From NCBI RefSeq assembly GCF_963921235.1, contig NC_086097.1:147190001-147254000 (forward strand): a stretch of DNA of 64,000 nt. Reading direction: 5' to 3'. The position numbers and the translations under genes are program-made. This DNA comes from Mobula hypostoma. Taxonomy: Eukaryota. Below, one piece after another: positions 23,635-62,699 of this stretch (positions are counted from its first letter, which is position 1; each line of letters begins with the position of its first letter). Under the pieces are notes generated by a model. It was not told the DNA's origin. It searched no databases and worked only from the letters and a program-made list of their open reading frames with translations.

Positions 23635-24744
23635 CAGGTTTCACCCGCTATCTGAAAGTAGAGCATTCCTATGAAACCTTTCATAGGCCGAAATGGCGTA
23701 AAAGGAAGAAGCAATTACCATTAATTTATATGGGAAAAATTTTTGAGCGTTCCCAGACCCAAAAAATAACCTACCAAATCATACCAAATAACACCAAATA
23801 GCGAGGGAGTTAGATATGACCCTTGTGGCTAAAGGGATCAGGGGGTATGGAGGGAAGGCTGGTACAGGGTTCTGAGTTGGATGATCAGCCATGATCATAC
23901 TGAATGGTGGTGCAGGCTCGAAGGGCCGAATGGCCTACTCCTGCACCTATTTTCTATGTTTCTATGTTTTCTATGTAACACATAAAACCTAAAATAACAC
24001 TAACGTATAGTAAAAGCAGGAATGATATGATAAATATACAGCCGAAAAAGTAGAAATAATGTAGTAGTTTCACTTACCAGAATCGGGAAGACAGCGAGCA
24101 CACTGGAACACCACGGAACACCACGCTTTGTACACCCATCAATCCACTCAAGCAATAGACTTTCCATTTTATCCATTACTGGATGCCGACTAAAAGAGAC
24201 CGCTTTACTACTAGCAGAACCATAGTAACATCGGCAGCTTTCAAGATTCTTTCTCTCTGCGTGTAAATAGAACGAATGGTGGACACAGGCAAGTTCAACG
24301 CACGCACAATGTCTTTATTTCGTTCACCACGATTGAAATGCTTAATTACGTCCAATTTTACGCTAAGCGTAACACCCTTATGAGCTCTCTTAGGCTTTTC
24401 TGATACCCTAGGACACATCTTGCTAATGGATGCACGAAATAAATCGAGATAAAGCACAGATGCTCACAGGCACAGTTCAAAGCTATGGTGGCTTGATGCT
24501 GAAATGCTGAGTGTAGTTCCTGGGGAAGGAGCTTGGCGGTACCACTCTCGCTGCTCGGGATGCGTGCTGCCTTTATAACGGCTTGCTGCAAAACAAACGC
24601 TGAACGCTATTTTCGCTTTTCTCCTTTTTTGGTAAAAGCAAAAATCCTCCGGATTTCTTTCGTTTAGCGAAAACAGGTACTAATGTAGGTCTTTCGTAAA
24701 AGCAAAGTGGCTTAAAGTGAATTTTCGAAAAGCGAGGGTACCTG
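23635..24744 (-). mobile_element. Tigger/pogo DNA transposon deletion derivative
   Basis: TA TSD (23633-34, 24745-46) splits the Rex1 codons GV|PGKALK; imperfect CAGGT..CGCT TIRs; CENP-B/psq-like HTH N-terminus KGVTLSVKLDVIKHFNRGERNKDIVRALNLPVSTIRSI. Confidence 0.85.
23795..23975 (+). mobile_element. Short CR1 3' end nested in the Tigger element
   Basis: TAACAC TSD (23789-94, 23976-81); GGCCGAATGGCC hairpin and (TTCTATGT)n tail; very similar to the 3' end of the full-length CR1 at 50.5 kb. Confidence 0.88.
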
Positions 24745-26419
24745 TACCTGGTAAGGCTCTGAAAACCTGTGCCAACCAACTAGCAGGAGTATTCAAGGAC
24801 ATTTTTAACCTCTCATTGCTACGGGCGGAAATTCCCACTTACTTCAAAAAGGCAACAATTATACCAACGCCTAAGAAGAATAATGTGGGCTACCTTAATG
24901 ACTATCGCCTGGTAGCACTCACCTGGACAGTGATGAAATGCTTTGAGAGGTTGGTCATGACTAGGCTGAACTCCTGCCTCAGCAAGGACCTGGACCCATT
25001 GCAATTTGCCTATCGCCACAATAGGTCAATGGCAGACACAATCTCAACGGCTTTCCACACGGCTTTAGACAACCTGGACAACACAAACATCTATGTCAGG
25101 ATGCTGTTCATTGACTATAGCTCAGCATTTAATACCATCATTCCCACAACCCTGATTGAGAAGTTGAACAACCTGGGCCTCTGCAATTGGATCCTTGACT
25201 CCCTAACCGGAAAACCACAATCTGTGTGGATTGGTGATAACATATCCTTCTTGCTGATGATCAACACTGGCGCACCTCAGGGGTGTGTGCTTAGCCCACT
25301 GCTCTACTCTCTATATACGCATGACTGTGTGGCTAGGTATAGATCAAATACCATCTATAAATTTGCTGACAATACAACCATTGTTGGTAGAATCTCATTT
25401 GGTGACAAGAGGGCACACAGGAGCGAGATGTGCCAACTAGTGGAGTGATGCCACAGCAACAACCTGGCACTCTACATCAGAAAGACGAAAGAGTTGATTG
25501 TGGACTTCAGGGAGGGTAAGACGAAGGAACACATACCAATCCTCACAGAGGGATCAGAAGTGGAGAGAGTGAGCAGTTTCAAGTTCCTGGGTGTCAAGGT
25601 CTTTGAAGACCTAACCTGGTCCCAATATATCGATGTAGTTATAAAGAAAGCAGGACAGTGGCTATACTTCATTAGGAGATCGGAGGGATTTGCCATGGCC
25701 ACAAATACACTCAGCAACATCTATAGTTGTATCGTGGAGAGCATTCTGACAGGCTGCATCACCGTCTCGTATGTAGGGGCTACTGCACAGGAGTGAAAGA
25801 AGCTGTAGAAGGTTTTTAAATCTAGTCAGCTCCATCTTGTGTACTAGCCTACAAAGTACTCAGGACTTCTTCAGGGAACAGTGTCCCAGAAAAGCAGCAT
25901 CCATTATTAAGGACCTCCAGCACCCAGGGCATGCCCTTTTCTCACTGTTACCATCAGGTAGGAGATACAGAAGCCTAAAGGCACACAGTCAGTGATTCAG
26001 GAACAGTTTCTTCCCCTCTGCCATCTGATTCCTAAATGGACACTGAATCTTTGGACATTACCTCACTTTTTAAAAAATATACAGTATTTCTGTTTTGTAC
26101 TTTTTAAAATCTATTCAATATACATAATTGATTTACTTGTTTGTTTATTTATTATTATTATTTTTTTTTCTCTGCTAGTTTATGTATTGCATTGAACTGC
26201 TGCTGCTAAGTTAACAGATTTCACGTCACATGCCAGTGATAATAACCCTGATTCTGATTCTAAGAATCATGGGCTGTGATATTGACATCAATGAGAAGAC
26301 TAATATCGCTGGACCACAAAGACTTCCTGATTACTTTCAGGTGTATCTTATGGATTTTGGGCTGCTGATCATGGAAGTCACTGTGAAATTTCCCTACCCC
26401 GCACTATTTTTGTGAAGTC

Positions 26420-32394: not shown

Positions 32395-33150
32395 ATCTAT
32401 TGATGCTTCTGGACACATCTTCAGTGATGTTCCTGGAATCATCGGGTGTTTCCGGTCTTTCAACATCATACAACCTCCTCCAGGTGACCCAGCCGGGGCT
32501 GATCAGACCCCAGCTTGTGTCCAGATGGCTAGCTACTTATGACTCCATGGCTCCCCTCTTTTGAGCCACAGCCATCTTGAGGCCCTCTCTGCCGCATCGG
32601 GGGTACTACAGATGGCTCCCCTCTTCCTCTCTCCCTCGATGCCCAAAATGCTGAAGGCTCTAACTAAAGAACAGGCTATAAATCCCCTACAACCAGCCTC
32701 CACTGGGAGACACCTCGCTCCCCATCCAGCCTGCTGACAGTTACTGACCAGTCCTGCGTACTTGGAGAGCTTCCTTTCAAAGGCCTCTTCCAAGCTATCT
32801 TCCCATGGGACTGTCAGCTCCAGCAGCACCACTTGCTTAGTAGACTCAGACACTCGGACAATGTCTGGTCGCAGGGTGGTGGCTGCGATATGGTTAGGGA
32901 ACTTCAGCTGCCCTTCGAGGTCCACCAACAGCTGCCAGTCCCTTGCAGAGGTCAGAATGCCTGCAGATGTTCTTTTGGCAGGTATTGACAGCTCCCCAGC
33001 TCTGACAAAGGCAATGGTCTGCTTGGAGGGTCGGGACCGCTTCGCCCACTCAACTCCTGTGCTGATGGCTTCAGCGATGGTCTTCAGGACCTGATCATAC
33101 CTCCACCTGTACCGTTCCTCACCAAGTGCCCTTGCACAGCTGCTGAGGAT
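32395..33150 (-). mobile_element. RLE-bearing non-LTR retrotransposon 3' end (HERO/NeSL-like)
   Basis: ILSSC..ALGEERYRWRYDQVL, LRPDIV, VLLELTVPWE, ERKLSKYAGL: restriction-like endonuclease PD..E motif; open for about 200 codons. Confidence 0.85.
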
Positions 33151-33934
33151 AGATATCTTCTTCAAGTATGAGAAAGAGGAGAAAGCCAAGGTTCAGTTTT
33201 GGGGGATACAAGAAGTAAAGGTGAAAGAGCCAAGTGAGAAGCCATTGCAGATGATTTTGTATCCTCTATTGGATGATTATGAACAGAGCCAGATAGAGCA
33301 GCCTCTTAGAGCTGCTTAACAGAGGACAGATGTTGGCAAATGACACAGTGGTCAGAGGATCCAAGCTAATAAAATAAATGTTCCTTTTCAAAGGTTAAGG
33401 GAATTTCTGAACGCTTGTTGAAAATACTTATCGTCTTAATTAAAACATTTTAACTGAAACAACAGATCATGCATAATCCTTGAACTTGGCCTCAAAACAT
33501 GGAAAGTATAGGAGGAGCAAACCATTCAGTCCTTTTGGAGCACACTTTGAAAAATGTTCTCATATTTTTTAACCTTCATAATCAGAGTGGCCATTAACTG
33601 CTAAAATTCAACAACTGAATTTTAATATGCGATTAAAATTTTATAATTTTATATGCGATTTCACAGCTGCCAGTGTTGATGCTTCAGACAAAATACCACA
33701 ATGCATTCTGATAATGAAGCTGTTAATTACAGACATATTTAGTTGGTCTTTAAAATTGTTCACAGCACTTCAAAATTTCTCATAACTGCACATAAAACAA
33801 CTTAATACAGTATACACAATTTGATCAAGGAACTTGCCGCTTACTTCTGACAACTCTAATTTCTCAAGCAACTGCTTAAGGTGTATTTTTAATTTTATAC
33901 CTTAAACCTCCATTGTAGATTATCAAGTCAAATC

Positions 33935-44214: not shown

Positions 44215-46850
44215 ACAGCTAAAGGAAAAAGAGAGGCATATAACTTAGCCAAAATTGTTGGGAAGTTAGAGCACTGTGAACTTTTAAAGACTAACAGAAG
44301 ACAACTAAAAATCCATAAGGAGAGTAAAGATGAAATACAAAGGCAAGCTAGCTAATAATATAGAAGGGATATCAGATGTCCTTTCAGATATATAAAGAGG
44401 AAAGGGAGGCACGAATGGAATTGGAACACTGGAAAATGACACTGGAGAGGTCGTATTGAAGAACAAAGAAATGGTGTATGAACTGAATTAGCATTTTGTA
44501 TCAGTTTCCACTGTGGAAGAGACTAGCTGTAGACCAGAAATTCACGTGTGATTGCTATTACTAGGGAGAAGGTACTTGACAATCTGAAAAGTCTGAAGGT
44601 AGCTAAGTCACCTGAACTACACCCCTGGATTCTGAAGAAGGTAGACAAAGAGATTAATGAGGCATTATTAATGATTAAGCTGTAGTGTTAGTACAGCTCT
44701 AACACCACATCCAGCTTTGCTGATGACACCACTGTTGTGGGCTGTATCAAAGGTGGTGATGAATCAGCATACAGGAGGGAGATTGTAAATTTGTCTGAGT
44801 GGTGTAATAACAGGAACCTCTCACTCAATATCAATATGACCAAGAAACTGATTGTAGTCTTCAGGAGAAGGAAACCAGAGATCCATCAGCCAATAATCAC
44901 TGGAGGATCAGAGGTGGAGAGGGTCAGTAACTTTAAATTCCTGGGTGTCACTATCCCAGAGGATCTGTCCTGGACTGATCATATGTGCAATTGCAAAGAA
45001 AGCATGACAGCACCTCTATTTCCGCATGAGTCTACAGAGATTTGGCACGACATCAAAAACCTTGGCAAACTTCTACAGATGTGCGGTGGAAAGTGTGCTG
45101 ACTGGCTCCATTACGGCCGGGTATGGGAACACCATTGCCTTTGAATGGAAAATCCTACAGAAAAAGGTAGTGGATTCAGCCTAGTACATTATGGGTAAAA
45201 TCCTCTCAACCATATGAAATGTTGCCTGAGGAAAGCAACATCGATCATCAAAGATCCTCACCACCCAGATGCTCTTTTCTTGCTGCTGCCGTCCGGTAGG
45301 AGGTACAAGTGCCCCAGGACTTGCACCACCAGGTTCAAGGACAGTTACTACCTCTCAACCATCAGTCTCTTGAACAAAAGGAAATAACTACTCTCATTTA
45401 AGGACTCTTTTATCTTGTTATTTTATGCTCATTATTTATTGCCTTTTATTGATATCTGCATTTGCACAGCTTGCTGTCCATTGATTCTGTTTACAGTTAC
45501 TCTTCTATAGATTTGCTAAGTATTCCCGCAGCAAAAGAATCTCCGGATTGTGTGTGGTGACATGTATGCATTTTGATAATAAATTTTACGTTGAACTTTG
45601 AACTTCCAAGAATTATTAGATTCTGAACTAGTTCCAGAGGGCTGAAAAACTGCAAATGTCACACCACTCTTTAAGAAGGAAGGGAGGCAGAAGGAAGGAA
45701 ACTATAGGCCAGTTAGCCTAACTTCAGTGGTTGGGAAGATGTTGGAATCCATTATTAAGGATGACACTTCAGGGTACTTAGATGCACATGATATAATATG
45801 CCAACATCAGCATGGTTTCCTTAAGGGGTTATCTTGCCTGAAAAATCTGTTGAGAAAATAACAGACGAAATAGACAAAGGAGAGTCAATTGATGCTTTTT
45901 AATTGGATTTTCAGAAGGCCTTTGACAAGGCTGCTTAACATGATAAGAGTCCGTGGTATTACAGAAATAATACTAGCTGGGGCAGAAGATTGGCTGACTA
46001 TCAGGAGGTAAAGAGTGAGAATAAAGGGGGCATTTTCTGGTGGGCTGTCATTGACTAGCGGTGTTCTGCAGGGTTTGGTGTTGGGACTGATTCCTTTCAT
46101 ATTATATGTCAATGATCTTGATGGCAGAATTGATGGTCTTGTGGCCAAATTTGTGGACGATACAATAGGTTGAGGGGCAGGTGGTGGTGAAGATGCAGAG
46201 AGCAAAAAAAGGGAATAGGCAGATTAGTAGAATGGGTAAGGAAGTAACAAATGGAATATGTGTAGGAAGTGTATGGTCATGCATTTTGGTAGAAGAAATG
46301 ATGACATAAACTATTCTCTAAATCTGGTAATAATTCAAATACCTGAGGTGTAAATGGACTTGGAAGTCCTTTCCTAAATGTCAACTTGCAAGTTGAGTGG
46401 ATGGTAAGGAAAGCACATGCAATGTTAGCATTCCTTCTTAGAGGACTAGAATATAAAAGCAAGGATAACATATTGAAGCTTTATCAGGCAATGGTCAGAC
46501 AACACAGAGTATTCTCAACAGCTTTAGGCCCTTTATTTAAGAAAAAATGTGCCAGCATTCGAGAGGGACCAGAGGAGGTTCATGAGAATGATTCTGGGAA
46601 TGAAAGGGTTAACAGATGACGGATGTTGATGGCTCCGGGCCTGCACTTGATAGAGTTTAGAAGAATGAGGGGGGAATCTTATTGAAACCTATCAGGGTTT
46701 CCCAACCTTTTTTATGGCATGGACCAACACCACAAGGAGTCCATGGACCCCAGATTGAAAATTTCTGTAATAAATCATCCATGATGGAATGGCGGAGCAA
46801 ACTCGATGATACAAAAAGCCTTATTCTGGTCCTATGTCTTATTTTCTTAT
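44215..46850 (+). mobile_element. Degenerate CR1 with a nested Rex1 3' fragment (about 44680-45604)
   Basis: CR1 NVTPLFKK, NYRPVSLTSVVGK, LDFQKAFDK; Rex1 FADDTTVVG, VSNFKFLG and (GAACTT)n tail. Confidence 0.8.
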
Positions 46851-48106
46851 GGTTCCATTACATTGTCAAGTTCAATAATGAATCAATGGTTGTCATCATC
46901 AACAACAATGAGGTAGCCTTCAGAGAGGAGGTGAAAGGGTTCAAGGCCAGGTGATAGGCGAACAACCAAAGGTGATTGTTATCAACTTCAGGAAACTCAC
47001 TCCTCTCCTTACATTAGCAGCACAGCAGTAGAAACTGTGAGCAATTTTAAATTCCTGGGAGCGCATGTCTTGCACACCCTCTCATCGTCCCAGAAAACAT
47101 CTTACACAAGCAAGAAAGCTCACCAGTCCCTCTACTTTATAAGTAGGTTGAAGGGAAATGGACTATCAACATCAACACTCATGACCTTCTATAGATATGC
47201 TGTATCACTGCATGGTGGGGAAACTACCTTGCTGCAGCCAGGAAGGCTTGGCAATAGGAAGTCAAAACTGCCCAACACATTACCAGCACTAGCCTCCATG
47301 CCACCAAGGACATATATGCAGAAAACTGCAAGAAAATGTCCAGCAGTATCATCCAGGATCCCATCTACCCTGCCTATGGGCAGTTTGTCATTTTCCCATA
47401 GGGAGGAGGCCACATCATATCTATGCCAGGACTACAGGACCCAAAAATAGTTACTTTTCCAGCAGTAAGGCTGATCAACACCTCCACCCACTAAGACACC
47501 CCACCATACCCCATAATGTGATGGTGGTGGGTTGCTGACTGCGAAGTCCTAATCTCAAACAAAGACCTTAAGCCCTATCAGATATAAATAGCACAGGTGC
47601 CCTCACTAAAGGGGAGGTTATACAGTAACTACCCAATCTTTAGAAGCTAGCTCACTTCCTTGTTTATCCACCCTGGTGAGTTCAGCTGCCAGCACCCACT
47701 ATTTAAGCAGCAAGTCCCCTCACCCTACCAAGGAGAAGATACAGTACTTCCAGCTAACAGAGTAGTTTAACCATAATTCATTTATTTTCAGTGATATGGG
47801 TTTAATTTCAATCAACAATCTTAAATCTCTCCTCTCATCTGGTAGGCGCTACAGGAGCCTCCGCTCCCCCACCGGCAGGCACAGGAAGAGCTTCTTCCCT
47901 GAGGCTGTGACACTGCTGAACCTCTCATCACAGCACTAAGCAGTATTGCATCCGTATTGTACTGTCTCAGTACTTTTATAGTTGTGTGCTATAGCACTTT
48001 TTTTATTCACAGTTATTTTGCACATAACACTATTCTTTGCATTTCTGGTCAGATGCTAAATGCATTTCATTGGCTTTGTATCTGTACTCGGCACAATGAC
48101 AATAAA

Positions 48107-49591: not shown

Positions 49592-50029
49592 CTTAAAACA
49601 AGTGAAATGACAATCTTATCCCAACCTAAAATACACAGCCTCTCTATTACTACACCAAGAGATTAATATAAAAATAAAATGATGGAAAATGAAGTCATTT
49701 TGGGAAATTCAGTGACATTCTTCTTAGTGCAAGGCAATGTAATAAACCTTTCTGGGTATATAGTAACTGATAAATCTTTCTAAATTTTGTAATTTGTCCA
49801 TGTTACTGAAACAAACACATTCCTCTCAGTTACTTGGTCAGTTTCCTTTTGATCAGCTTTTATTGCATGATTTGAAATTCTGAATAAAAATAGTTATGTG
49901 AAAATTTGCTAATCCAAAAGTAACATTTCTGTGAAAATAAATACTTCTTAACATTGCAACTGAACTACTTTTATTCCAATTTCCTTTCTTTCCATTTCAA
50001 ATAATATTCTGAATTTAACAGAATTTAAC

Positions 50030-50490
50030 ATCTTCATCATGTTCAAATTTGCTGATGATACAAAGATTGGAGGTGCAGTAGACAGTGAGGAAGGTTTTCA
50101 GAACCTGCAGAAGGACTTGCACCAGCTGGAAAAATGGGCTGAAAAATGGCAGATGGAGTTTAATACAGACAAGTGTGAGGTATTGCACGTTGGAAGGACA
50201 AACCAAGGTAGAACATACAGGGTTAATGGTAAGGCACTGAGGAGTGCAGTAGAACAGAGGGATCTGGGAATACAGATACAAAATTCCCTAAAAGTGGCAT
50301 CACAGGTAGATAGGGTTGTAAAGAGAGCTTTTGGTACATTGGCCTTTATTAATCAAAGTATTGAGTATAAGAGCTGGAATGTTATGATGAGGATGTATAA
50401 GGCATTGGTGAGGCCGAATCTGGCGTATTGTGTTCAGTTTTGGTCACCAAATTACAGGAAGGATATAAATAAGGTTGAAAGAGTGCAGAG
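50030..50490 (+). mobile_element. Older CR1 copy, left part (target of the full-length insertion)
   Basis: FKFADDTKIGG...KVERVQR; the reading continues RFTRML at about 55158. Confidence 0.9.
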
Positions 50491-50584
50491 AAACATAGAA
50501 ACATAGAAAATAGGTGCAGGAGTAGGCCATTCGGCCCTTCGAGCCTGCACCGCCATTTATTATGATCATGGCTGATCATCCAAC

Positions 50585-53584
50585 TCAGAACCCAGCCTTC
50601 CCTCCATACCCCCTGACCCCTGTAGCCACAAGGGCCATATCTAACTTCCTTTTAAACATAGCTAATGAACTGGCCTCAACAGTTTGCTGTGGCAGAGAAT
50701 TCCACAGATTCACCACTCTCTGTGTGAAGAAGTTTTTCCTAACCTCGGTCCTAAAAGGCTTCCCCTCTATCCTCAAACTGTGACCCCTCGTTCTGGACCT
50801 CCCCAACATCGGGAACAATCTTCCCGCATCTAGCCTGTCCAATCCCTTTAGGATCTTATACGTTTCATTCAGATCCCCCCTCAATCTTCTAAATTCCAAC
50901 GAGTACAAGCCCAGTTCATCCAGTCTTTCTTCATATGAAAGACCTGCCATCCCAGGAATCAATCTGGTGAACCTTCTTTGTACTCCCTCTATGGCAAAGA
51001 TGTCTTTCCTCAGATTAGGGGACCAAAACTGCACACAATACTCCAGGTGTGGTCTCACCAAGGCCTTGTACAACTGCAGTAGTACCTCCCTGCTCCTGTA
51101 CTCGAATCCTCTCGCTATAAATGCCAGCATACCGTTCGCCTTTTTCACCGCCTGCTGTACCTGCATGCCCACTTTCAATGACTGGTGTATAATGACACCC
51201 AGGTCTCGTTGCACCTCCCCTTTTCCGAATCGGCCACCATTCAGATAATAATCTGTTTTCCTATTTTTGCCACCAAAGTGGATAACTTCACATTTATCCA
51301 CATTAAATTGCATCTGCCATGAGTTTGCCCACTCACCCAACCTATCCAAGTCACCCTGCATCCTCTTAGCATCCTCCTCACTGCTAACACTGCCACCCAG
51401 CTTCGTGTCATCCGCAAACTTGGAGATGCTGCATTTAATTCCCTCATCCAAGTCATTAATATATATTGTAAACAACTGGGGTCCCAGCACTGAGCCTTGC
51501 GGTACCCCACTAGTCACCGCCTGCCATTCTGAAAAGGTCCCGTTTATTCCCACTCTTTGCTTCCTGTCTGCTAACCAATTCTCCACCCACACCAATACCT
51601 TACCCCCAATACCGTGTGCTTTAAGTTTGCACACTAATCTCCTGTGTGGGACCTTGTCAAAAGCCTTTTGAAAATCCAAATATACCACATCCACTGGTTC
51701 TCCCCTATCCACTCTACTAGTTACATCCTCAAAAAATTCTATGAGATTCGTCAGACATGATTTTCCTTTCACAAATCCATGCTGACTTTGTCCGATCATT
51801 TCACCGCTTTCCAAATGTGCTGTTATCACATCCTTGATAACTGACTCCAGCAGTTTCCCCACCACCGACGTTAGGCTAACCGGCCTATAATTCCCCGGTT
51901 TCTCTCTCCCTCCTTTTTTAAAAAGTGGGGTTACATTAGCCACCCTCCAATCCTCAGGAACTAGTCCAGAATCTAACGAGTTTTGAAAAATTATCACTAA
52001 TGCATCCACTATTTCTTGGGCCACTTCCTTAAGCACTCTGGGATGCAGACCATCTGGCCCTGGGGATTTATCTGCCTTCAATCCCTTCAATTTACCTAAC
52101 ACCACTTCCCTACTAACATGTATTTCGCTCAGTTCCTCCATCTCACTGGACCCGCTGTCCCTTACTATTTCTGGAAGATTATTTATGTCCTCCTTAGTGA
52201 AGACAGAACCAAAGTAATTATTCAATTGGTCTGCCATGTCCTTGCTCCCCATAATCAATTCACCTGTTTCTGTTTGCAGGGGACCTACATTTGTCTTTAT
52301 CAGTCTTTTCCTTTTTACATATCTATAAAAGCTTTTACAGTCCGTTTTTATGTTCTCTGCCAGTTTTCTCTCATAATCTTTTTTCCCCTTCCTAATTAAG
52401 CCCTTTGTCCTCCTCTGCTGAACTCTGAATTTCTCCCAGTCCTCAGGTGAGCCACTTTCTCTGGCTAATTTGTATGCTACTTCTTTGGAATTGATACTAT
52501 CCCTAATTTCTCTTGTCAGCCACGGGTGCAGTACCTTCCTTGATTTATTCTTTTGCCAAACTGGGATGAACAATTGTTGTAGTTCATCCATGCAACCTTT
52601 AAATGCCTGCCATTGCATATCCACCGTCAATCCTTGAAGTGTCATTTGCCAGTCTATCTTAGCTAATTCACGTCTCATACCTTCAAAGTTACCCCTCTTT
52701 AAGTTCAGAACCTTTGTTTCTGAATTAACTACGTCACTCTCCATGTTAATGAAGAATTCCACCATATTATGGTCACTCTTACCCAAGGGGCCTCTCACGA
52801 CAAGATCGCTAATTAACCCTTCCTCATTGCTCAAAACCCAGTCCAGAATAGCCTGCTCTCTAGTCGGTTCCTCGACATGTTGGTTCAAAAAACCATCCCG
52901 CATACATTCCAAGAAATCCTCTTCCTCAGCACCTTTACCAATTTGGTTCACCCAGTCTACATGTAGATTGAAGTCACCCATTATAACTGCTGTTCCTTTA
53001 TTGCACACATTTCTAATTTCCTGTTTAATACCATCTCCGACCTCACTGCTACTGTTAGGTGGCCTGTACACAACTCCCACCAGCGTCTTCTGCCCCTTAG
53101 TGTTACACAGCTCTACCCATATCGATTCCACATCTTCCCGGCTTATGTCCTTCCTTTCTATTGCGTTAATCTCTTTTTTAACCAGCAACACCACCCCACC
53201 TCCCCTTCCTTCATGTCTATCCCTCCTGAATATTGAATATCCCTGAACGTTGAGCTCCCATCCCTGGTCACCCTGGAGCCATGTCTCTGTGATCCCAACT
53301 ATATCATAATCATTAATAACAATCTGCACTTTCAATTCATCCACCTTATTACGAATGCTCCTTGCATTGACACATAAAGCCTTCAGGCGCTCTTTTACAA
53401 CTCTCTTAGCCCTTTTTAATGCTTGCCCTGGATTTGTCGGCCTGCCACTTTTACTTTTCCCCTTTGTACTTTTTGCTTCTACGCTCACTTTACACCCCTC
53501 TGTCTCTCTGCACTGGTTCCCATCCCTCTGTTGTGAACTAACCTCCTCACACCTAGCCGCTTTAATTTGATTCCCACCCCCCAA
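50585..53584 (-). CDS. CR1 ORF2: AP endonuclease + reverse transcriptase
   Basis: 999 uninterrupted codons: NARS, ITETW, YRPP, MGDFN, SDHN (APE); SPGPDG, NYRPVSLTS, LDFQKAFDKV, GVPQGSVLGP, KFADD (RT). The listed start is TTG; the first ATG is codon 202. Confidence 0.95.
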   Translation of the reverse strand: MGGGNQIKAARCEEVSSQQRDGNQCRETEGCKVSVEAKSTKGKSKSGRPTNPGQALKRAKRVVKERLKALCVNARSIRNKVDELKVQIVINDYDIVGITETWLQGDQGWELNVQGYSIFRRDRHEGRGGGVVLLVKKEINAIERKDISREDVESIWVELCNTKGQKTLVGVVYRPPNSSSEVGDGIKQEIRNVCNKGTAVIMGDFNLHVDWVNQIGKGAEEEDFLECMRDGFLNQHVEEPTREQAILDWVLSNEEGLISDLVVRGPLGKSDHNMVEFFINMESDVVNSETKVLNLKRGNFEGMRRELAKIDWQMTLQGLTVDMQWQAFKGCMDELQQLFIPVWQKNKSRKVLHPWLTREIRDSINSKEVAYKLARESGSPEDWEKFRVQQRRTKGLIRKGKKDYERKLAENIKTDCKSFYRYVKRKRLIKTNVGPLQTETGELIMGSKDMADQLNNYFGSVFTKEDINNLPEIVRDSGSSEMEELSEIHVSREVVLGKLKGLKADKSPGPDGLHPRVLKEVAQEIVDALVIIFQNSLDSGLVPEDWRVANVTPLFKKGGREKPGNYRPVSLTSVVGKLLESVIKDVITAHLESGEMIGQSQHGFVKGKSCLTNLIEFFEDVTSRVDRGEPVDVVYLDFQKAFDKVPHRRLVCKLKAHGIGGKVLVWVENWLADRKQRVGINGTFSEWQAVTSGVPQGSVLGPQLFTIYINDLDEGIKCSISKFADDTKLGGSVSSEEDAKRMQGDLDRLGEWANSWQMQFNVDKCEVIHFGGKNRKTDYYLNGGRFGKGEVQRDLGVIIHQSLKVGMQVQQAVKKANGMLAFIARGFEYRSREVLLQLYKALVRPHLEYCVQFWSPNLRKDIFAIEGVQRRFTRLIPGMAGLSYEERLDELGLYSLEFRRLRGDLNETYKILKGLDRLDAGRLFPMLGRSRTRGHSLRIEGKPFRTEVRKNFFTQRVVNLWNSLPQQTVEASSLAMFKRKLDMALVATGVRGYGGKAGF

Positions 53585-53589
53585 CCATT

Positions 53590-54504
53590 CTAGTTTAAAG
53601 TCACCTCAGTAGCCCCCGCTAATCTCCCTGCCAGGATATTGGTCCCCCTAGGATTTAAGTGTAACCCGTCCTTTTTGTACAGGTCACACCTGCGCCAAAA
53701 GAGGTCCCAATGATCGAAAAACTTGAATCCCTGCCCCCTGCTCCAATCCCTCAACCACGCATTTATCCTCTCACTGTCGCGTAGCACAGGCAGTAATCCC
53801 GAGATTACTACCTTTGCGGTCCTTTTTCTCAACTCCCTTCCTAGCTCCCTATATTCTTCTTTCAGGACCTCATCCCTTTTCCTACCTATGTCATTGGTAC
53901 CTATATGTACCAGGACCTCTGGCTCTTCACCCTCCCACTTCAGGATATCTTGGACATGATCAGAAATATCCCGGACCCTGGCACCAGGGAGGCAAACTAC
54001 CATCCGAGTCTCTGGACTGCGTCCACAGAATCGCCTATCTGACCCACTTACTATCGAGTCCCCAAACACAACTGCCCTCCTCTTCCTTGCCCTACCCTTC
54101 TGAGCTACAGGGCCAGACTCTGTGCCGGAGGCAGGGCCACTGTCGCTTCCCCCGGGTAAGCTGTTCCCCCCAACAGTACTCAAACAGGAGTACCTGTTGT
54201 TAAGGGGCACAGTCGCCGGGGTACTCCCCATCACCTGCCTTTTCCCCTTCCCCCTCCTAACCGTGACCCACTTGTCTGCCTCCCGTGGCCCCGGCGTGAC
54301 CACCTGCCTTCCACTCCTCTCTATCACCTCCTCGCTCTCCCTGACCAGACGAAGGTCATCGAGCTGCAGCTCCAGTTCCGTAACGCGGTCCCTTAGGAGC
54401 TGCATCTCGATGCACTTGGCGCAGATGTAGACGTCCGGGAGGCTTGGAGACTCCAGGGCCTCCCACATCCGACACCGAGAACAGCAAACTGCCCTCACAG
54501 TCAT
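53590..54504 (-). CDS. CR1 ORF1: zinc finger + leucine zipper + SGNH/GDSL esterase
   Basis: ATG at 54504; CSRC..CAKC; LLRDRVTELELQLDDL; VFGDS, PGA, GTND, DGLH catalytic blocks. Confidence 0.93.
   Translation of the reverse strand: MTVRAVCCSRCRMWEALESPSLPDVYICAKCIEMQLLRDRVTELELQLDDLRLVRESEEVIERSGRQVVTPGPREADKWVTVRRGKGKRQVMGSTPATVPLNNRYSCLSTVGGNSLPGGSDSGPASGTESGPVAQKGRARKRRAVVFGDSIVSGSDRRFCGRSPETRMVVCLPGARVRDISDHVQDILKWEGEEPEVLVHIGTNDIGRKRDEVLKEEYRELGRELRKRTAKVVISGLLPVLRDSERINAWLRDWSRGQGFKFFDHWDLFWRRCDLYKKDGLHLNPRGTNILAGRLAGATEVTLN
53593..53599 (-). promoter_or_regulatory. Candidate -1 ribosomal frameshift heptamer U_UUA_AAC
   Basis: ORF1 reads acT TTA AAC TAG; the -1 frame TTT AAA CTA GAA TGG TTG GGG is ORF2. 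Confidence 0.65.
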
Positions 54505-54667
54505 AATGCCCCTCTCCTCAAATAGCAACAGAAAATGAATGTCAAACCTTCCTCGCCTCGCCCGCTTCCGCCTAAGCCCGGTGAGCCGAAGCCCTTAAGT
54601 CTTCACTCTGCTCCCGGCTCACTCCGCAGCCCGCAAACTACGCTGCCCGCTCTATGAGGCTCTGTTC

Positions 54668-55159
54668 CTTTTAAATCTGCCGCGCTGCACTGCCCGACGT
54701 CACACGCCTGCGCAGTCCCGCCTCTCAGAAAGCCGTTGGAGAAAAAAAAATAACGAAAATTTCAAAAATCTCTTTCTCGGCACTCCCACTCAGACTCTCA
54801 GACTCCTTCTTCGAATCAAATCCGAAGCAGGATGTCTGCCCTTTTAAATCTGCCGCGCTGCACTGCCCGACGTCACACGCCTGCGCAGTCCCGCCTCTCA
54901 GAAAGCCGTTGGAGAAAAAAAATAACGAAAATTTCAAAAATCTCTTTCTCGGCACTCCCACTCAGACTCTCAGACTCCTTCTTCGAATCAAATCCGAAGC
55001 AGGATGTCTGCCCTTTTAAATCTGCCGCGCTGCACTGCCCGACGTCACACGCCTGCGCAGTCCCGCCTCTCAGAAAGCCGTTGGAGAAAAAAAATAACGA
55101 AAATTTCAAAAATCTCTTTCTCGGCACTCCCACTCAGACTCTCAGACTCCTTCTTCGAA
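54668..55159 (-). repeat. Tandem 172/173-bp promoter-like monomers (about 2.85 copies) in the CR1 5' UTR
   Basis: Units start at 54668, 54841 and 55013 on plus; identical apart from an A9/A8 run. Confidence 0.95.
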
Positions 55160-55645
55160 GGTTTACAAGGATGTTGCTGGGTCTTGAGAAACTCATGTTA
55201 CAGAGAAAGGTTGAATAGGGTAGGACTTTATCCCCGGGAGCGTAGAAGAATGAGGGGAGATTTGATAGAGGTATATAAAATTATGATGGGTATAGATAGA
55301 GTGGATGCAAGCAGGCTTTTTCCACTGAGGCAAGGGGAGAAAAAAAACCAGAGGACATGGGTTAAGGGTGAGGGGGGAAATGTTTAAAGGCAACATTGGG
55401 GGGGGGCTTCTTCATACAGAGAGTGGTGGGAGTATGGAATGAGCTGCCAGACGAGGTGGTAAATGCGGGTTCTTTTTTAACATTTAAGAATAAATTGGAC
55501 AGATACATGGATGGGAGGTGTATGGAGGGATATGGTCCGTGTGCAGGTCATTTGGATTAGGCAGAAAGTGGTTCGGCACAACCAAGAAGGGCTAAAAGGC
55601 CTGTTTCTGTGCTGTAGTTTTTCTATGGTTTCTATGGTTTCTATG
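55157..55645 (+). mobile_element. Older CR1 copy, right part
   Basis: RFTRML..RMRGDLIEVYKIM; (TTTCTATGG)n tail at about 55618-55645. Confidence 0.9.
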
Positions 55646-60408: not shown

Positions 60409-62699
60409 TAGGGGTCGCCAACCCGTCGATCGTGATCGTCCGGTCGATCTTTGAGACTTTCCCAGCAGATCCTGAAAAAAATCAAAAAGAAATACACAAA
60501 TACTGTTGTAATTAGGATAATGGTAATATAGCAATACTTTTGCTACTGAACGCTGTTTATAAAGAGCTATTGTTTCCGGGTTGCGGGGGTTTAGTTCCGT
60601 TCTTTCTGCCCAGTGCGCGTGTGTGTAGCTCCCCCGCCATGCACCGTGTTTTCAGCGTAGCCTGTGCTGCATCAAAGTGACCAATTAGGTTAGATAAGAG
60701 CACAAACTGTCGCAAACATCAATATATGGCAGTGGTCCCCAACCTCCGGGCCGCGAACCATGCAGTAGTCGGAACGCACCCAGCAAATCTTTAAGAAAAA
60801 AAAGCCGAAATAAACCAGCTAATTAATTAGGTGCCTCAGGGCACGTAAATGTCCGCCCAGAACAGAGGCAATGCCATCAGCAATCGCTTGTGATATCCTG
60901 ATAGCATGGCGGAGGCTCCACAAAAGAAAGCGAAAACGTACAAATTCCATCCAGAATGGGAAGAGGAATATCTGATTACCTTGGTGAAAGACATGTGTGT
61001 ATGTATGTTGTGCCACCAAACACAAGCACTGACTAAAAGAGGGAATCTGGAGCGACACCACAACACCAACCACCAGAAATTTAAAGACACCTACCCCCCA
61101 AAGAGCGCAATTCGTGCCTGGAAAGTTGAGCTGAAATCGGGGTTGAAGGCCCAGCAATCGTTTTCCACAAAACATGCTGCTCAAAATAAGGCTGCTATTG
61201 AAACATCATTTCGTGTAAGTCACCTTTTGGCTAAACACAAGAAGCCTTTTACAGATGGCGATTTATTCAAGGAAGCAATGGCCATTATTGCAAAAACTGT
61301 TTTTAATTACTTTAAAAACAAAAACGACATCATAACCGCAATACATAATATACCGCTTGGCCCTGCAACAGTGCCAGGGAGGGTAGAGTCACTGTCAGAG
61401 GATGTGAATATTTTTCTCTACAGTTTGATGAATCCCTGGAGGTAATGCAAACAGCTCAGCTTGTTGTATTTGTCAGAATGGCTTTCCGGGATTTTACAAC
61501 AAAGGAGGACTTCCTCACTCTTTTGCAATTAAAGGAGAGAATGAGAGGTGAGGATATTTACAATGAGTTTAAAAAATATGTCCATGAAAATGACAACCCC
61601 ATTCATAAACTGGAGGCAGTTACTACTGATGGGGCTGAGCATTGCGCAGTGTGTGCATTAGTTTTATAGCACTAAAAGTCAGTGCCTACTTTGGGTCAAC
61701 TTACCTATGTGAAATTGCATTTTCACAGATGAAAATTATTAAATCTAAGTACAGGAGCTGACTTACTGACAGACACCTCACTAGGGTTGCCAAATTTCTC
61801 ACTCCCAAATAAGGGGCAAAAGTAGCAGTCAAATCCCGGGGCACTTGTGTTTACCCCATGAAAGACTACCATGACCATGAAACCTTGCACGGGCACCTGT
61901 TTGTGCATACGTGTACGTGCCGATTTTTTCCCCCACGAATTGGCTTAATCTTCATTATTTCTACTTTATATAGGCTGTGTATTTATCATATCATTCCTGC
62001 TTTTACTATGTATTAGTGTTATCTTGGGTTTTATGTGTTATTTGGCATGATTTGGTAGGTTATTTTTCGGGGTCTGGGAATGCTCAAAAATTTTTCCCAT
62101 ATAAATTAATGGTAATTACTTCTTCGCCTTATGCCATTTCGGCATGAAAGGTTTCATAGGAATGCTCTACCTTAGCGGGGGAAATATGGGACAAGGGCGG
62201 TCCCATATGGGACAAACCAATTTAGCCCAGTATACGGGATGTCTCTGCAAATACGGGACAGTTGGCAACCCTACACCTCACAGGCTGTCTCAGACTGACT
62301 GTCTGTAGTTATGAGCCAAATTTCAGGAACTAGCAGAAAGTATTCAGCCCTAGTCATCACACTGAGTGCAACAGTTAATTTTTATTCATTTATTTTTTGT
62401 GTTGAAATAATATTAAATAATGAAACTTAGAATTAAAGGTGTGAAGTATTGTAATATTCTTAAAGAAAGACAGATATGGCCTGTTTGATATGAGAGTTAC
62501 AGTGTTTTCTTGTTTGAATTAATTTGAAAGTTTGACAAAAGTATTTTGTGTAATTCAAATACAATTAGCCCAAATAAAAGGCATCAAATTGGAAGTACAA
62601 TCTGAGCTGTTTTTTCTCTAAACGATTTAGTAGGTAAATCTTGCCTTTCACTTAGGTCGAGATAAGGGATCTTGGGCTTAAAAAGGTTGGTGACCACTA
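60409..62699 (+). mobile_element. hAT (Charlie/SPIN/GTF2IRD2-like) transposon with degenerate transposase
   Basis: 8-bp TSD GCCTAGAC; TIR TAGGGGTCGCCAACC / GGTTGGTGACCACTA (13/15 match); BED-like CMLC..NLERHH, KHKKPFTDGD, AQLVVFVRM, VTTDGA; frameshifts and deletions. Confidence 0.92.
61782..62273. mobile_element. Non-autonomous hAT MITE nested in the hAT element
   Basis: TIR TAGGGTTGCCAA / TTGGCAACCCTA; perfect 8-bp TSD CACCTCAC. Confidence 0.9.

Follow-up and report, generated by a model that had tools for sequence, protein, structure and literature searches.

Promoter-like tandem units at the 5' end of a young CR1 retrotransposon of Mobula hypostoma

The window analysed here is a stretch of 64,000 nt from Mobula hypostoma (contig NC_086097.1), and all positions are counted from its first base. 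A young two-ORF CR1 LINE was found on the minus strand of the window, from 55159 to 50489, inserted into an older CR1 copy. The element and its target consist of the following features.

49964..50492, plus strand: left part of an older CR1 reverse transcriptase fragment, the target of the young element's insertion
50489..50584, minus strand: 3' UTR, with a stem-loop at about 50551-50513 and an 8-nt repeat tail at about 50512-50489
50585..53605, minus strand: ORF2, 1006 codons open from stop to stop, encoding an AP endonuclease and a reverse transcriptase
53590..54504, minus strand: ORF1, 304 aa, with Cys motifs, a coiled-coil-like stretch and an SGNH/GDSL esterase
54505..54666, minus strand: tether, the unique 5' UTR from the last TATA-like box to the ORF1 ATG
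54667..55159, minus strand: 5' monomer array, three units of 148-149 nt and two identical 24-nt spacers
55157..55159, minus strand: 5' junction, 3 nt common to the unit start and the target, recurring at the 3' junction (50490-50492)
55157..55645, plus strand: right part of the older CR1, resuming the interrupted frame, with a 9-nt repeat tail at its end

Domain searches confirmed the esterase-type ORF1 (PF13472, 2.1e-12) and the two domains of ORF2 (PF03372, 6.8e-12; PF00078, 1e-33). The 3' end of canonical CR1 elements consists of a stem-loop and a short-repeat tail and has no poly(A); the last 102 nt of this element folded weakly better than shuffles (z -1.92). Judged from its sequence, the element is a CR1 with an endonuclease/reverse transcriptase ORF2, an esterase ORF1 and a CR1-type 3' end. 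An esterase ORF1 is a feature of canonical CR1 (PMC13343379), and the nearest published consensus, found by eye in the part of the table compared, carries the label LINE/CR1. The three target nucleotides recurring on either side of the element also match the element's own sequence at each of its ends.

In a protein search with ORF1, the best of 65 matches was from Mobula hypostoma (94% identity), with skate and stingrays among those named as ranking next. Seven residues were absent from ORF1 at one place (about 53770) when compared with 19 of 19 aligned relatives. Six Mobula gene models (P0053, P0054, P0061, P0062, P0065 and P0034), with names including TMEM204 and ABHD14A-like, fuse CR1 ORF1 to other sequence and break at one common ORF1 point near 53775, suggesting that ORF1 contains a splice donor through which CR1 transcripts become joined to host exons. 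A relative of ORF1 with 57% identity (P0022), which sits on a 4-kb contig under the label of a Pseudomonas aeruginosa SGNH hydrolase, is probably shark or ray DNA inside a bacterial entry.

The window also contains at least 10 older CR1 fragments with 66-78% identity to the young element. A 166-nt piece at 23804-23969 (plus strand) is 92% identical to the young element's 3' end and has the same stem-loop and tail; it is either a short truncated copy or a SINE tail, and the 3' UTR of the young element is 6 nt shorter. Reverse transcriptase frames of other LINEs were found at 24684-25448, 44692-45144 and 46935-47450. A 219-aa frame at 32533-33192 (minus strand) has a PD-(D/E)xK-like motif, which we take to resemble the restriction-like endonuclease of R2-group retrotransposons, and a 183-aa frame at 60894-61445 (plus strand) presumably resembles the N-terminus of a hAT/SPIN-type transposase.

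The 5' end of the young element is built from the following units, all on the minus strand and listed from the element's 5' end.

55012..55159, minus strand: unit 1, the 5'-most, beginning at the element's 5' end
54988..55011, minus strand: spacer 1, between a TATA-like box and the next unit start, found between units only
54840..54987, minus strand: unit 2, identical to unit 1
54816..54839, minus strand: spacer 2, covered by contigs in all four sequencing runs compared
54667..54815, minus strand: unit 3, the terminal one, with one extra T

The original prediction had described about 2.85 near-identical, CpG-rich units of 172 bp. Tandem Repeats Finder returned the same array with a period of 172, 2.9 copies and 99% matches, and the ratio of observed to expected CpG was 1.27 in the array, compared to 0.55 in ORF1, 0.40 in ORF2 and 0.18 in the 5' flank. 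The count of three units is that given by the assembled sequence for this copy. Unit 3 departs from units 1 and 2 solely by the T added in a T run, and it lacks the 24-nt spacer, in whose place a different stretch follows; the start of this tether resembles by eye the equivalent stretch in stingray and sawfish CR1 elements of the published table. Identity of the units was considered as a sign of homogenisation after insertion and rejected: about 1.8 substitutions were expected, an estimate derived from 2 near-private sites among 40 of 121 variant rows, and zero were seen (P about 0.17). Neither the unit (z -1.12, for a 145-nt stretch spanning the motifs and the spacer and excluding the unit's first 27 nt) nor the tether (z 0.13) folded better than shuffles as RNA.

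Each unit ends with a cluster of four motifs, which we take to be E2F/GC-box-, NRF1-, CRE- and TATA-like. All four lie where the original prediction had placed them and are present in 3 of 3 units.

55013..55067, minus strand: cassette 1, with the E2F/GC-box-like motif at 55067-61, NRF1-like at 55059-50, CRE-like at 55047-40 and TATA-like at 55020-13
54989, minus strand: start (TG) predicted for cassette 1 from TATA spacing
54841..54895, minus strand: cassette 2, with its predicted start (TG) at 54817, TATA+31
54668..54722, minus strand: cassette 3, with its predicted start (CA) at 54644, TATA+31

Of 3000 dinucleotide shuffles made from one unit, 0 contained all four motif classes, a figure that overstates significance because the motif definitions were picked after the unit had been seen. 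The TATA-like box, TTTAAAAG, is non-canonical, with one mismatch to TATAWAWR, and the same box was also present in most ray families examined in the published table. In all three units, behind two different spacers, a pyrimidine-purine dinucleotide is found at a distance of 31 nt from the box's first T. In mouse CAGE data, functional TATA boxes lie at -34 to -29, with an optimum at -31/-30 and pyrimidine-purine starts (PMC1779604), and on that standard the one-mismatch box with its pyrimidine-purine start has the predicted make-up of a TATA-type core promoter. Among the variants listed, 6 sites fell inside the unit and zero broke a motif, numbers too few to count. At 54695, about 48% of the depth in organism D, against about 1% in organisms A and B, has a base that makes the CRE a perfect palindrome.

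The element's own 5' end had been placed 33 nt past the TATA-like box. Folded onto the next unit, it does fall at 54815, but microhomology blurs the distance to TATA+33 to +36: since the first three bases (55159-55157) also match the older CR1 target, the true 5' end is anywhere from 54815 to 54812. Truncation junctions often show such microhomology.

Other copies were sought in sequencing contigs, using one unit plus 26 nt of the next unit as the query stretch. Four of 23 runs were compared (X1, X9, X17 and X6), representing three organisms (A, B and D); all are contigs and thus uninformative on RNA starts. The bins of the spacer and of the junction were covered in 4 of 4 runs. One contig from organism B bridged the tandem joint, running from 54839 back to 54667 (a step back of 173), and a contig from organism A spanned unit and spacer with 8 differences and a gap, indicating another copy. 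Spacer and joint were found in organism D as well as in B. Summed depth just across the junction was 36,414 in X1, 11,334 in X9, 420 in X17 and 233 in X6, compared to depths of 6-16 for long flank-bearing contigs, which points to many copies, the depths not being copy numbers; X1 may be the source sample. The contigs were too short for counting the units of each copy.

In run X6, which was used solely for the junctions bridged, two contigs exit the element at 54816 (TATA+32), and the sequences into which they run are unlike the spacer (agreement 0.65) and unlike each other. Two other insertions in X6 therefore end within 1 nt of the folded 5' end of this copy. With these, three individual 5' junctions were observed in all, and the 5' ends in the family of the window's element lie at TATA+32 to +36, 1-5 nt past the predicted start. 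The table of contig ends showed no accumulation of molecules beginning or ending at one place, and position 54816 was missing among the six loose-end rows listed for each of X1, X9 and X17, where short junction contigs may be unplaced. A drop in depth at the unit start (from 142k to 67k in X1, the other three runs alike) was rejected as evidence, because depth falls similarly at the far edge of the stretch (425k, 221k, 161k) and is unsuited to ranking the parts of a stretch.

Published consensus sequences were compared by eye in part of Supplementary Table 2 of PMC13343379, each over its first 400 nt. The NRF1-like 10-mer had 11 occurrences in 10 rows of this part, namely six from Hypanus, three from Pristis and one from alligator. 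Eight of the 19 Hypanus CR1 rows examined bear the cassette, six with the exact word and two with variants, and all eight begin 0-6 nt before the word homologous to the start of this unit. The remaining 11 begin in ORFs or in the inner UTR (nine) or have other 5' ends (two). The stingray families share ancestors, and the ends of consensus sequences depend on curation. The closest row, HypSab_CR1-6a, begins at the same base as the unit in the window and, like HypSab_CR1-5 and HypSab_CR1-12, shares with it the motif cassette, the tether start, the region of the ORF1 start and the 5' start word.

These three consensus sequences differ from the copy in the window, which has three units, in that HypSab_CR1-6a and -5 have one unit and HypSab_CR1-12 has two; seven of the eight cassette-bearing stingray consensus sequences have one unit only. 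The three also have, in the first 55 nt of their units, a word that we take to be YY1-like; by eye, no intact YY1-like word is present in the unit of the window. HypSab_CR1-12, listed with 839 copies of which 208 have an intact ORF2, is a tandem of two units (about 168 nt) whose TATA boxes are canonical; it starts at TATA+29 (lower case) to +31 (upper case), and its spacer differs from the window's beyond the first few bases.

Beyond the stingray, among families with a visible internal junction, catshark ScyCan_CR1-11b begins at +34 of a canonical TATA box and lizard HemCap_L2-1a and -1b at TATA +32 and +33; dogfish SquAca_CR1-15b, at +35 of a box with two mismatches, is a weak fit. CarCar_CR1-14, with its start at TATA+20, and PriPec_CR1-4, a ragged consensus starting about 100 nt from a TATA-like word, did not fit. 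CarCar_CR1-2 and -23 are likewise misfits, with arrays of about 115 nt and no TATA box seen in the first 400 nt of the consensus, and LeuEri_CR1-1 has two TATA-bearing units with no clear start. Alligator AllMis_CR1-1a has the NRF1-like palindrome at its start, followed by a TATA-like word as in the window, and sturgeon AciRut_CR1-1 has a repeated 5' block.

Random scatter of 5' ends through the unit, or a repeat confined to this copy, would have counted against the original prediction. On scatter the outcome was divided, the two contigs and all eight cassette-bearing consensus sequences ending at the unit start but the contig-end table having no peak. The repeat is not confined to this copy, since the spacer occurs in three organisms, the joint is bridged in organism B and HypSab_CR1-12 is itself a tandem. 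At the DNA level the earlier model is largely borne out, and the array is a real feature of the family.

The units also appear to turn over. At 54731 and 54770 all three units of this copy have the same base, whereas joint-bearing organism B has another base in about 98% of summed depth, these shares being summed contig depths and not copy numbers. On this rough, depth-based comparison, variants appear to have spread among the units within a lineage. Since the spacer exists only between units, a one-unit copy could not rebuild it; its presence in three organisms would mean that the founding line never fell below two units.

Taken together, the array is probably the promoter of the family, each cassette starting transcription at the next unit, with units disappearing from the 5' end and being restored from copies that have two or more. 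The end of the unit would act as an upstream-type Pol II promoter, with activator sites at about -50 to -80, the TATA-like box at -31 and a pyrimidine-purine start. Because an upstream promoter lies outside its own transcript, a cassette would be inherited only if the preceding unit starts the RNA. The earlier claim that a parent with n units gives daughters with n-1 would hold for starts driven by the first unit, but starts at later units would leave the daughters with fewer. The copies made by an n-unit parent would have n-1 units at most and would all begin at a unit start, and starts at the last cassette would produce promoterless copies; cassette 3 of this element, starting at 54644, would yield an RNA without any unit. 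The lineage would then persist through copies with at least two units, which would gain units back by homology, either through unequal crossing-over or through nascent cDNA realigning from unit 1 onto an internal unit.

The main alternative is an internal promoter as in human and mouse L1, in which elements inside the unit, a YY1-type word near the start or the NRF1- and CRE-like motifs further in, set the start at the unit's first base. One-unit copies would then be autonomous and extra units would only add strength. Such a promoter predicts identical phased ends, and it agrees with the YY1-like word in the units of HypSab_CR1-5, -6a and -12, with the single unit in seven of eight cassette-bearing stingray consensus sequences and with mouse G and T monomers, whose ends cluster near a YY1 site (PMC6454616). 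On the other side, that word is not intact in the unit of the window, the order and spacing of the cassette are those of an upstream promoter pointing out of the unit, the distance from TATA to start is preserved with spacers that are unrelated, and HypSab_CR1-12 and ScyCan_CR1-11b have a canonical box. We regard an internal promoter as unlikely.

Phasing might also arise at integration, if stalling of the reverse transcriptase or microhomology joins favoured the unit start and the true start lay elsewhere; the array would still be a feature of the family. The 3-nt microhomology at the 5' junction of this copy is in keeping with this, as is the offset of 1-5 nt between ends and predicted start, known from three individual junctions only. 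The 145-nt stretch of motifs and spacer, however, folds no better than shuffles (its first 27 nt excluded), and in the published table families with differing units and spacers end by eye at the same distance from TATA. A truncation hot spot of this kind is improbable, and both it and a private duplication are weaker rivals than the internal promoter. Duplication of a single 5' UTR in this copy, or its expansion during assembly, with the end position due to chance, would suit units identical apart from one T and a run X1 that may be the source sample, but is very improbable and, as regards the existence of the tandem, refuted by the spacer and joint in organisms B and D, the diverged copy in organism A and the published tandem of HypSab_CR1-12 with the same cassette.

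A promoter of upstream type maintained by unit loss and regain may extend further. It is conceivable, though we hold it only tentatively, that many vertebrate CR1 and L2 families captured a TATA-type upstream promoter, have no internal one and keep it by a 5' unit treadmill of loss and regain, in which the reverse transcriptase itself may add units back by realigning on a repeat. In the part of the table compared, arrays with TATA about 30-35 nt before the consensus start were visible by eye in stingray, catshark and lizard. If this broader reading were true, most copies of full-length appearance would be a single step away from sterility, and new lineages would come only from copies with at least two units.

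CR1-group elements account for 22-34% of the genomes of sharks and rays (PMC13343379), and no description of their transcription in sharks and rays was found in the literature searched. The element described here offers a testable case, as the start is predicted to the base, the spacer marks every junction, and lineage variants may trace the loss and regain of units. The proposed model predicts that the fertile copies are those with at least two units, and that every insertion delivers a CpG-island promoter to the genome.

In a literature search covering listings and the opening parts of abstracts, with Repbase, Dfam and subscription papers outside its scope, no TATA-type monomer promoters were found in CR1. 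An ORF1-based locus search returned 27 loci, of which 26 were distant and metagenomic, 1 was bacterial and 0 were viral, and 0 of these 27 had either a unit match or a repeat with a period of at least 30; a protein search with the frame read across the array gave 0 of 37 candidates. Subunits have been described in CR1-group elements, 1-5 in number and of 100-500 bp, near the 5' UTR (PMC13343379, Fig. 4 legend). These concern ORF1-less elements only and are given no function there, whereas the element in the window has an esterase ORF1; the words 'promoter', 'tandem' and 'monomer' have 0 occurrences in the main text of that paper. Chicken CR1 5' UTRs have E boxes, and a 32-bp direct repeat is known from turtle and pufferfish (PMC2734521).

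An upstream copy drives transcription of a downstream copy in HeT-A and Penelope (PMC2377424). The arrangement proposed here likewise uses an upstream copy as promoter, but in HeT-A and Penelope the 3' UTR of a neighbouring or partial copy serves as the promoter, TATA-less in Penelope, whereas here a short unit is repeated within the 5' end.

The closest parallel is mouse L1Md (A, Tf and Gf), in which tandem CpG-rich units also precede a unique tether and ORF1. In mouse L1, the 5' ends concentrate at a single monomer position that coincides with CAGE peaks, and the promoter is maintained by monomer duplication (PMC6454616; PMC9022269; PMC5381506). Second-strand priming and unequal crossing-over have been put forward as models for the regain of monomers (PMC6454616; PMC9022269), and how a tandem promoter survives truncation-prone copying is stated to be unclear (PMC6454616). 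Mouse L1 differs in belonging to the L1 clade and in having starts that are linked to YY1 or AP-1 sites and distributed over about 30-40 nt; the CR1 described here has a TATA-type upstream cassette, a spacer confined to the joints between units and a start that is predicted to the base. The underlying logic would thus be that already known from mouse L1 monomers, and what appears to be new is a TATA-type version of it in an ORF1-bearing CR1.
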